Assembly: GCA_964407265.1 (NCBI GenBank)
Contig: CAYOUV010000011.1
Coordinates: forward strand, 800 to 64,799
Origin: an uncultured Anaerolineaceae bacterium
GTDB taxonomy: Bacteria; Chloroflexota; Anaerolineae; Anaerolineales; Villigracilaceae
Direction of reading: 5' to 3'
DNA: 64,000 bases
Part shown: positions 11,240 to 11,743 of the stretch, piece after piece
How the letters are laid out: the number at the start of each line of letters is the position of its first letter
Position numbering within the stretch: position 1 is the stretch's first letter
Made by a program: the position numbers and the translations under genes
Notes under the pieces: generated by a model
The model's database searches: none
What the model was told of the DNA's origin: nothing
The model's input: only the letters and a program-made list of their open reading frames with translations

Positions 11240-11743
11240 ATGAATAAGGTTTCGAGCCTTTTGCAAGGTCGCTTTAAATTCATTATGGGTGGCTTGTTGA
11301 TTCTGGCTGCGGTGATTTATTTAATCGTATCTTCGACTCAGGCCAGCGCAGAATATTTCATGACCGTCGATGAATTAAAAGCCAGGGGGCAAAGCGTGGT
11401 TGACAAGAATCTGCGAGTCTCCGGTGCTGTGATCGGTGACACGATTCAATACGACGCCCAGTCTCTGACCCTGTCCTTTGATGTGGCCCAAGTGACGGGC
11501 GATAACAAGGAGATCGAAGCCCAGGGCGGACTGGCTGCGGTCTTGCACCAGGCCGTGATCGACCCTTCCCGTAACCGCGTCAAGATTGTCTATGTCGGTC
11601 CCAAACCGGACCTGCTGCGCGACGAAGCCCAGGCTATTGTGACCGGTCATCTGGGTCCGGATGGCGTCTTCTACGCCGACGAACTGTTGCTCAAGTGCCC
11701 AACCAAGTATGAAGAGGCAGTGCCACAGCAGGTTGACGGATAA
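11240..11743 (+). CDS. ccmE: Haem chaperone CcmE, Cys-type (CxxxY) variant
   Basis: N-terminal TM and OB-fold-like body. C-terminus ADELLLKCPTKYEE sits where canonical CcmE has LAKHDEKY, so Cys replaces the haem-binding His. Confidence 0.85.
   Translation: MNKVSSLLQGRFKFIMGGLLILAAVIYLIVSSTQASAEYFMTVDELKARGQSVVDKNLRVSGAVIGDTIQYDAQSLTLSFDVAQVTGDNKEIEAQGGLAAVLHQAVIDPSRNRVKIVYVGPKPDLLRDEAQAIVTGHLGPDGVFYADELLLKCPTKYEEAVPQQVDG

Follow-up and report, generated by a model that had tools for sequence, protein, structure and literature searches.

The window analysed here, a 64,000-nucleotide stretch of contig CAYOUV010000011.1 from an uncultured Anaerolineaceae bacterium, contains an intact operon for cytochrome c maturation (Ccm). 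The operon runs from ccmE through ccmF, ccmH, a TlpA/ResA-like thioredoxin gene, a gene for a transmembrane (TM) and zinc-ribbon protein and one for a dihaem cytochrome c to ccmA, ccmB, ccmC and a CcmD-like ORF (Table 1). An earlier reading of this DNA, made from the sequence alone, had given the gene order as ccmEFHG...ABCD, and the profile matches bear this out. Next to the operon lies a large group of genes for multihaem cytochromes. The operon is flanked on the 5′ side by a NarL-type histidine kinase and response regulator pair and on the 3′ side by the gene of a 544-residue SLT-like protein. Both flanks are also present in many of the best 80 relatives, and the conserved block therefore exceeds the ccm genes.

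Table 1. Features of the ccm locus, in window coordinates.
Feature	Position	Strand	Description
Histidine kinase and response regulator pair	8800–11056	+	NarL-type; 5′ flank
ccmE	11240–11743	+	Cys-type haem chaperone, 167 aa; TM helix, OB-fold with insertion, flexible tail
CcmE insertion	11489–11569	+	about 25 residues (residues ~84–110) in the OB-fold; modelled as two short helices
C153-P-T-K-Y157 motif	11696–11710	+	predicted covalent haem attachment site; Cys153 codon TGC at 11696–11698, Tyr157 codon TAT at 11708–11710
ccmF	11768–13831	+	haem lyase, 687 aa; WWD motif WGGYWGWDPVE
ccmH	13902–14390	+	162 aa from ATG; signal/TM segment, three-helix thiol domain, C-terminal TM helix
CcmH four-Cys motif	14028–14078	+	C43-PV-C46-ENTPLDV-C54-PTQA-C59 (C-x2-C-x7-C-x4-C)
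CcmG-like thioredoxin	14441–15025	+	membrane-anchored, TlpA/ResA type, WCKPC
TM and Zn-ribbon protein	15038–15550	+	TM helix, helical region, C-terminal zinc ribbon
Dihaem cytochrome c	15575–17488	+	637 aa; Cytochrome_CBB3 94.5 bits, Cytochrom_C 75.4 bits
ccmA	17491–18189	+	ABC ATPase; TIGR01189 140.2 bits, above cut-off 131.6
ccmB	18191–18910	+	PF03379 107.4 bits
ccmC	18938–19636	+	WWD motif WWTWDPRL; PF01578 93.2 bits, TIGR01191 114.6 bits
CcmD-like ORF	19643–19810	+	55 aa, single TM; CcmD-like by position
SLT-like protein	19881–21515	+	544 aa; 3′ flank

The first gene of the operon encodes a CcmE, which scores 82.9 bits with the Pfam family PF03100 (cut-off 24.6 bits; E = 2.3e-23). The protein ends in ...ADELLLKCPTKYEEAVPQQVDG, also given as ...FYADELLLKCPTKYEEAVPQQVDG, and its tail contains LLLKCPTKYEE. 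In phmmer alignments against PDB chains, the segment LLLKCPTKY is matched to VLAKHDENY of E. coli CcmE (8CE8_E and 1SR3), to the identical VLAKHDENY of Shewanella CcmE (1J6Q) and to LMTKCPLEH of D. vulgaris CcmE (2KCT). Written column for column, ELLLKCPTKY stands against EVLAKHDENY of E. coli and TLMTKCPLEH of the D. vulgaris construct, so that Cys153 occupies the column of E. coli His130 and of the D. vulgaris Cys, and C153-x3-Y157 aligns with H130-x3-Y134 at the canonical spacing. By these alignments Cys153 is homologous to the haem-binding His and stands at the predicted haem-binding position. The sequence-only reading had placed a Cys at this position on the strength of LLKCPTKYEE and had asked for an alignment to the CcmE families; the alignment agrees with it, and the tail contains no alternative His. 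The window protein lacks the HxxxY of canonical CcmE, carrying CPTKY instead, and has the Cys-for-His replacement of the variant known as System I*.

The AlphaFold2 model of the protein (mean pLDDT 81.9) is in line with this assignment. A helix at residues 3–36, together with the hydrophobic stretch FIMGGLLILAAVIYLIVS, provides the N-terminal membrane anchor. The β-strands run to residue 152, and Cys153 comes directly after the last of them, at the start of a tail in which the pLDDT falls to 62 and then to 44. The best Foldseek matches among PDB entries are all CcmE chains (8CE8_E, 1SR3, 1LM0/1J6Q and 2KCT), and the OB-fold is shared with D. vulgaris CcmE at a TM-score of 0.73 normalised to 2KCT. 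The insertion in the OB-fold is common to another family of the same order (f2) and is absent from other Chloroflexota CcmE.

The remaining core genes are readily recognised. The ccmF product scores 185.6 bits with PF16327, 127.5 bits with PF01578 and 410 bits with TIGR00353. The thioredoxin, which keeps its position in relatives, matches AhpC-TSA (73.2 bits) and Redoxin (55.7 bits) and falls below the equivalog cut-offs of ResA (NF002854, 83.3 bits) and DsbE (TIGR00385, 51 bits); these matches, with the WCKPC motif, substantiate the CcmG-like thioredoxin that had been read from the sequence. CcmA, B, C, F, G and H of canonical System I are hence all represented, CcmA above its equivalog cut-off and the others above Pfam cut-offs. 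Between ccmG and ccmA lie the zinc-ribbon protein and the 637-residue cytochrome c, both kept there in relatives. The former matches Zn_Ribbon_1 at 31.3 bits, and its N-terminal part has a weak match to CcmI (TIGR03142, 15.3 bits against a cut-off of 29.3), which suggests that it is possibly a CcmI-N-like helper. The 55-residue ORF scores below the cut-offs of both CcmD models (TIGR03141, 13.8 against 25.95 bits; TIGR04391, 13.5 against 24 bits) and has no match in a Pfam search; a homologue directly 3′ of ccmC is kept in relatives.

The host genome assembly (3.45 Mb, 157 contigs, 90.8% complete) holds a single CcmE, a single CcmF and a single CcmH, and three DsbD_TM/CcdA-like genes lie elsewhere in it. 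A search for ResB of System II gave no match in the genome, which at 90.8% completeness leaves the absence of System II unproven. Given the single copies of CcmE, CcmF and CcmH and the lack of a ResB match, we conclude that the operon is the general cytochrome c maturation system of the organism.

The CcmH/NrfF-type gene with LYCPVCEN that the sequence-only reading had pointed out is genuine. Its product matches PF03918 at 84.9 bits and aligns without gaps to the solved structures from E. coli (2KW0) and P. aeruginosa (2HL7), with its CPVC in the place of their CPKC. The window protein has two further Cys, which stand where the solved structures have the Ser and the Ala of IADSNxxIA, and it has Tyr for the Arg of the canonical LRCxxC. 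The pattern C..C.......C....C is kept in all 69 CcmH of Anaerolineales relatives. Across the phylum it occurs in only 4 of 82 sampled CcmH (families f1, f2, f56 and f65), each beside a Cys-type CcmE; the other 78 are canonical two-Cys proteins with CPVCQGxSVADSPS and stand beside either type of CcmE. We therefore take the four-Cys form to be a trait of the lineage and reject it as a general partner of Cys-type CcmE. A literature search on multi-cysteine CcmH, not confined to the term CcmH, found no description of such a protein.

We examined the conservation of the locus among close relatives. The motif C-P-[TS]-[KR]-Y is present in all of the best 120 database homologues, with Cys and Tyr invariant. 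When one genome per GTDB species was scanned, 512 genomes had a relative; the best 80 of these, which are Anaerolineales/Anaerolineae metagenome-assembled genomes including Candidatus Villigracilis saccharophilus, all have CPT[KR]Y. Conservation in 120 homologues and 80 species genomes means that the motif is not a chance occurrence. Of the loci in these 80 genomes, 65 extend 3.3 kb or more downstream of ccmE; every one of the 65 has ccmH and keeps the order ccmE-F-H-G, zinc-ribbon protein, cytochrome, ccmA-B-C and CcmD-like ORF. The well-supported five-member CcmE clade of the window includes both conditions, with CcmH in G000, G139 and G234 and without it in G202 and G076. With the window CcmH as query, no match at E ≤ 0.1 was found in G076, G202, G148, G266 or G065, and the absence of ccmH was confirmed in this way in four genomes of two sister genera. 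These genera have a near-identical Cys-type ccmE-ccmF with the same CcmE insertion. In G076, a closed genome, ccmE and ccmF stand alone (G076:C1:149000-167000; ccmE at 15000-15521 and ccmF at 12981-14996, both on the minus strand). Within this clade, loss of ccmH in two genera is the simpler reading.

We then asked how the two types of CcmE are distributed in the phylum. Of 401 sampled Chloroflexota genomes, 283 gave a CcmE and 219 a CcmH, and the motif was read in 105 CcmE ORFs from 99 genomes. Cys-type CcmE, K/Q-C-[PAG]-[ST]-[KR]-[YF], is present in 73 of the 99, and His-type CcmE (for example KHDENY, KH[DS]xxY, KHDARF, KHGP[TE]F and QHPPEF) in 26. CcmH accompanies the Cys type in 53 of 73 genomes, usually as ccmE-ccmF-ccmH, and is lacking in the other 20; it accompanies the His type in 26 of 26, so that every genome without CcmH is of the Cys type. 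These counts come from related genomes in a non-random sample; they describe a pattern and do not amount to a statistical test. About 25 family-level groups show Cys-type CcmE with ccmEFH synteny. A quick maximum-likelihood tree was built from the 105 CcmE sequences, with the motif column left in the alignment, which should matter little. On this tree the His type forms one group that requires one change (SH-aLRT 89). The presence of CcmH changes at least six times; well-supported branches make at least three of these changes unavoidable, and all of them fall within the Cys type.

Two further arrangements were encountered in the survey. In the CcmH-less family f21 (CcmE KCPSKYQE), a gene between ccmF and ccmG was considered as a hidden CcmH and rejected; it encodes a protein with a J-domain, a TM segment and TPR repeats (G036:C3:198000-214000, 7782-8864, minus strand) that is possibly CcmI-like, and the ccmG-like protein of this family also starts with a J-domain-like segment. 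Family f29 (G037, G049 and G025) has a tandem ccmE pair, with KCPSKY and KCPH[SR]Y, both of the Cys type, in genomes that have CcmH.

Cys-type CcmE has a literature of its own, in which the status of CcmH has shifted. In the definition of Allen et al. 2006, as reviewed in PMC3601427, the variant has a Cys-type CcmE and lacks CcmH. Stevens et al. 2011 (FEBS J 278:4170; PMC3601427), writing of System I*, withdrew the absence of CcmH as a defining feature and reported CcmH in about one third of the bacteria with Cys-type CcmE. They gave CPSKY as the commonest motif, with F for Y in a few cases, and noted that "chloroflexi and firmicutes also feature" among the carriers. Kletzin et al. 2015 (PMC4429474) described a homologue of CcmH even from an archaeon, Ferroglobus placidus. 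The bacteria that Stevens et al. found to retain CcmH have exactly the combination seen in the window, and the same phylum is named; that survey gives counts only (36 genomes), without a description of operons or CcmH subtypes, and its share of one third compares with about three quarters of the Cys-type genomes in our Chloroflexota sample. A literature search on ccm genes specific to Anaerolineae found nothing useful.

The window operon has ccmH and so departs from the 2006 definition. The sequence-only reading had started from that definition, in which a Cys-type CcmE belongs to a CcmH-less system, and had seen in the operon a novel hybrid of canonical and variant System I. Its premise reflects the 2006 view, since revised (PMC3601427; PMC4429474), and the novelty is lost with it: the reading had itself allowed that the novelty would disappear if the combination proved common, and 53 of the 73 genomes with Cys-type CcmE have the combination, as do 65 of 65 close relatives; the 2011 review had already reported it. 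Cys-type CcmE with CcmH is the standard, already reported layout of the lineage and the phylum, not a hybrid of two systems, and in Chloroflexota having CcmH is both the ancestral state and that of the majority. The gene identities, the homology of the Cys, its conservation and the spread of the pairing are all direct observations of this study. We read the window as encoding the single, complete Ccm (System I) of an Anaerolineales bacterium, of the known System I* kind, with haem predicted to be carried on Cys153 of CPTKY, a reading to which we assign a probability of roughly 85%.

The operon can be compared with characterised systems. The System I* of Desulfovibrio desulfuricans and D. vulgaris likewise has Cys for His, in C-P-x-K-Y, and likewise has ccmE-ccmF at the head of the operon with ccmABC(D) after. 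The Desulfovibrio operon lacks ccmH and ccmG, whereas the window operon has both, as well as the helical insertion of about 25 residues in the CcmE barrel and the zinc-ribbon and dihaem cytochrome genes between ccmG and ccmA. Methanosarcina acetivorans CcmABCEF also has a CXXXY CcmE, the Cys of which is needed for haem attachment; it has no CcmD, CcmH or CcmI and does not need CcmG/CcdA, whereas the window system keeps CcmH and a CcmG-like protein (PMC9084895). All core components of the canonical System I of E. coli and Rhodobacter are present in the window operon as well, and the likeness extends to the place of the CcmH CxxC, the CcmG-type thioredoxin and the WWD motifs of CcmC and CcmF. 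The differences from the canonical system are the Cys in place of His130, the order EFHG...ABCD, the two additional Cys of CcmH, and CcmD and CcmI equivalents that are only weakly recognisable.

The covalent chemistry and the roles of the partners we infer by homology. CcmC and the CcmAB ATPase, probably with the 55-residue CcmD-like protein, would load haem onto CcmE, where it would be held covalently on Cys153, presumably through a thioether bond to a vinyl group. Once released, holo-CcmE would hand its haem over to CcmF/CcmH. Together, the CcmH CxxC and the TlpA-like thioredoxin would keep the thiols of the apocytochrome CxxCH reduced, and CcmF/H would attach the haem, through two thioether bonds, in the many multihaem cytochromes whose genes lie nearby. 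In the D. desulfuricans system a Cys-type CcmE forms a covalent bond with haem and allows cytochrome c to be made (Goddard 2010; summary in PMC3601427), and Cys120 of the M. acetivorans CXXXY motif is needed for haem attachment (Gupta et al. 2022; PMC9084895). Against our reading we count E. coli CcmE H130C, which, as cited in PMC9084895, binds haem and fails to hand it on to CcmFH. The window system combines a Cys-type CcmE with CcmH, and we know of no system of this kind that has been tested biochemically.

A different history would be that a CcmH-less System I* operon recently gained ccmH, and ccmG with it, from a His-type system by horizontal transfer. Gupta et al. 2022 (PMC9084895) infer that ccm genes have often been transferred horizontally, and the six or more changes in CcmH presence on the CcmE tree could be taken in the same sense. 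A recent chimera is at odds, however, with the ten-gene order, ccmH directly after ccmF, which 65 of 65 relatives keep and which recurs in a further family of the order (G234), and with the ccmEFH synteny beside Cys-type CcmE in about 25 family-level groups. The window CcmH is of the lineage-specific four-Cys form, whereas every CcmH beside a His-type CcmE in the phylum sample is a canonical two-Cys protein. The patchy presence of ccmH within the clade of the window is, as stated above, more simply read as loss in two genera. We consider such a transfer very unlikely.

It is less likely still that another residue of CcmE, such as His103 or His137, binds the haem and that Cys153 is structural or redox-active only. 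Both His are nearly invariant in close relatives, and this is what the proposal has in its favour. His103, however, lies inside the lineage-specific insertion, and other Cys-type CcmE do without that insertion. Cys153 falls exactly on E. coli His130 and on the D. vulgaris Cys, its spacing to Tyr157 is the canonical x3, all 79 Cys-type sequences of the phylum sample have the Cys in K/Q-C-x3-[YF], and the homologous Cys is the one needed in M. acetivorans (PMC9084895). Least credible is a dedicated NrfEF-type lyase for non-standard CxxCK motifs in place of a general one: the best NCBIfam matches of ccmF and ccmH do include NrfE (TIGR03145, 391 bits) and NrfF (TIGR03147, 37 bits), but these scores are far below the respective cut-offs of 927 and 159 bits, a generic nrfE/ccmF subfamily model scores higher, and with one CcmF, one CcmH and no System II match in the genome the pair must serve all cytochromes.

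With the pairing reported in 2011 and found here as the majority layout of Chloroflexota, the combination of Cys-type CcmE and CcmH matters little as originally posed. The lineage-specific CcmH raises a separate idea, that the four-Cys form is a functional adaptation, either an additional redox pair or a site for a metal, by which CcmFH could take over haem from a CcmE that binds it through a thioether. We think this improbable; if it were true, it would account for the failure of E. coli CcmFH with CcmE H130C, and the ccmH-less sister genera with near-identical ccmE and ccmF would form a natural knockout series. The one-way rule in our sample, in which CcmH is lacking only beside a Cys-type CcmE, would agree with the view that CcmH becomes dispensable only where haem is handled through a cysteine. 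Close Anaerolineales genera, some with ccmH and some lacking it, provide a natural comparison for what CcmH contributes.
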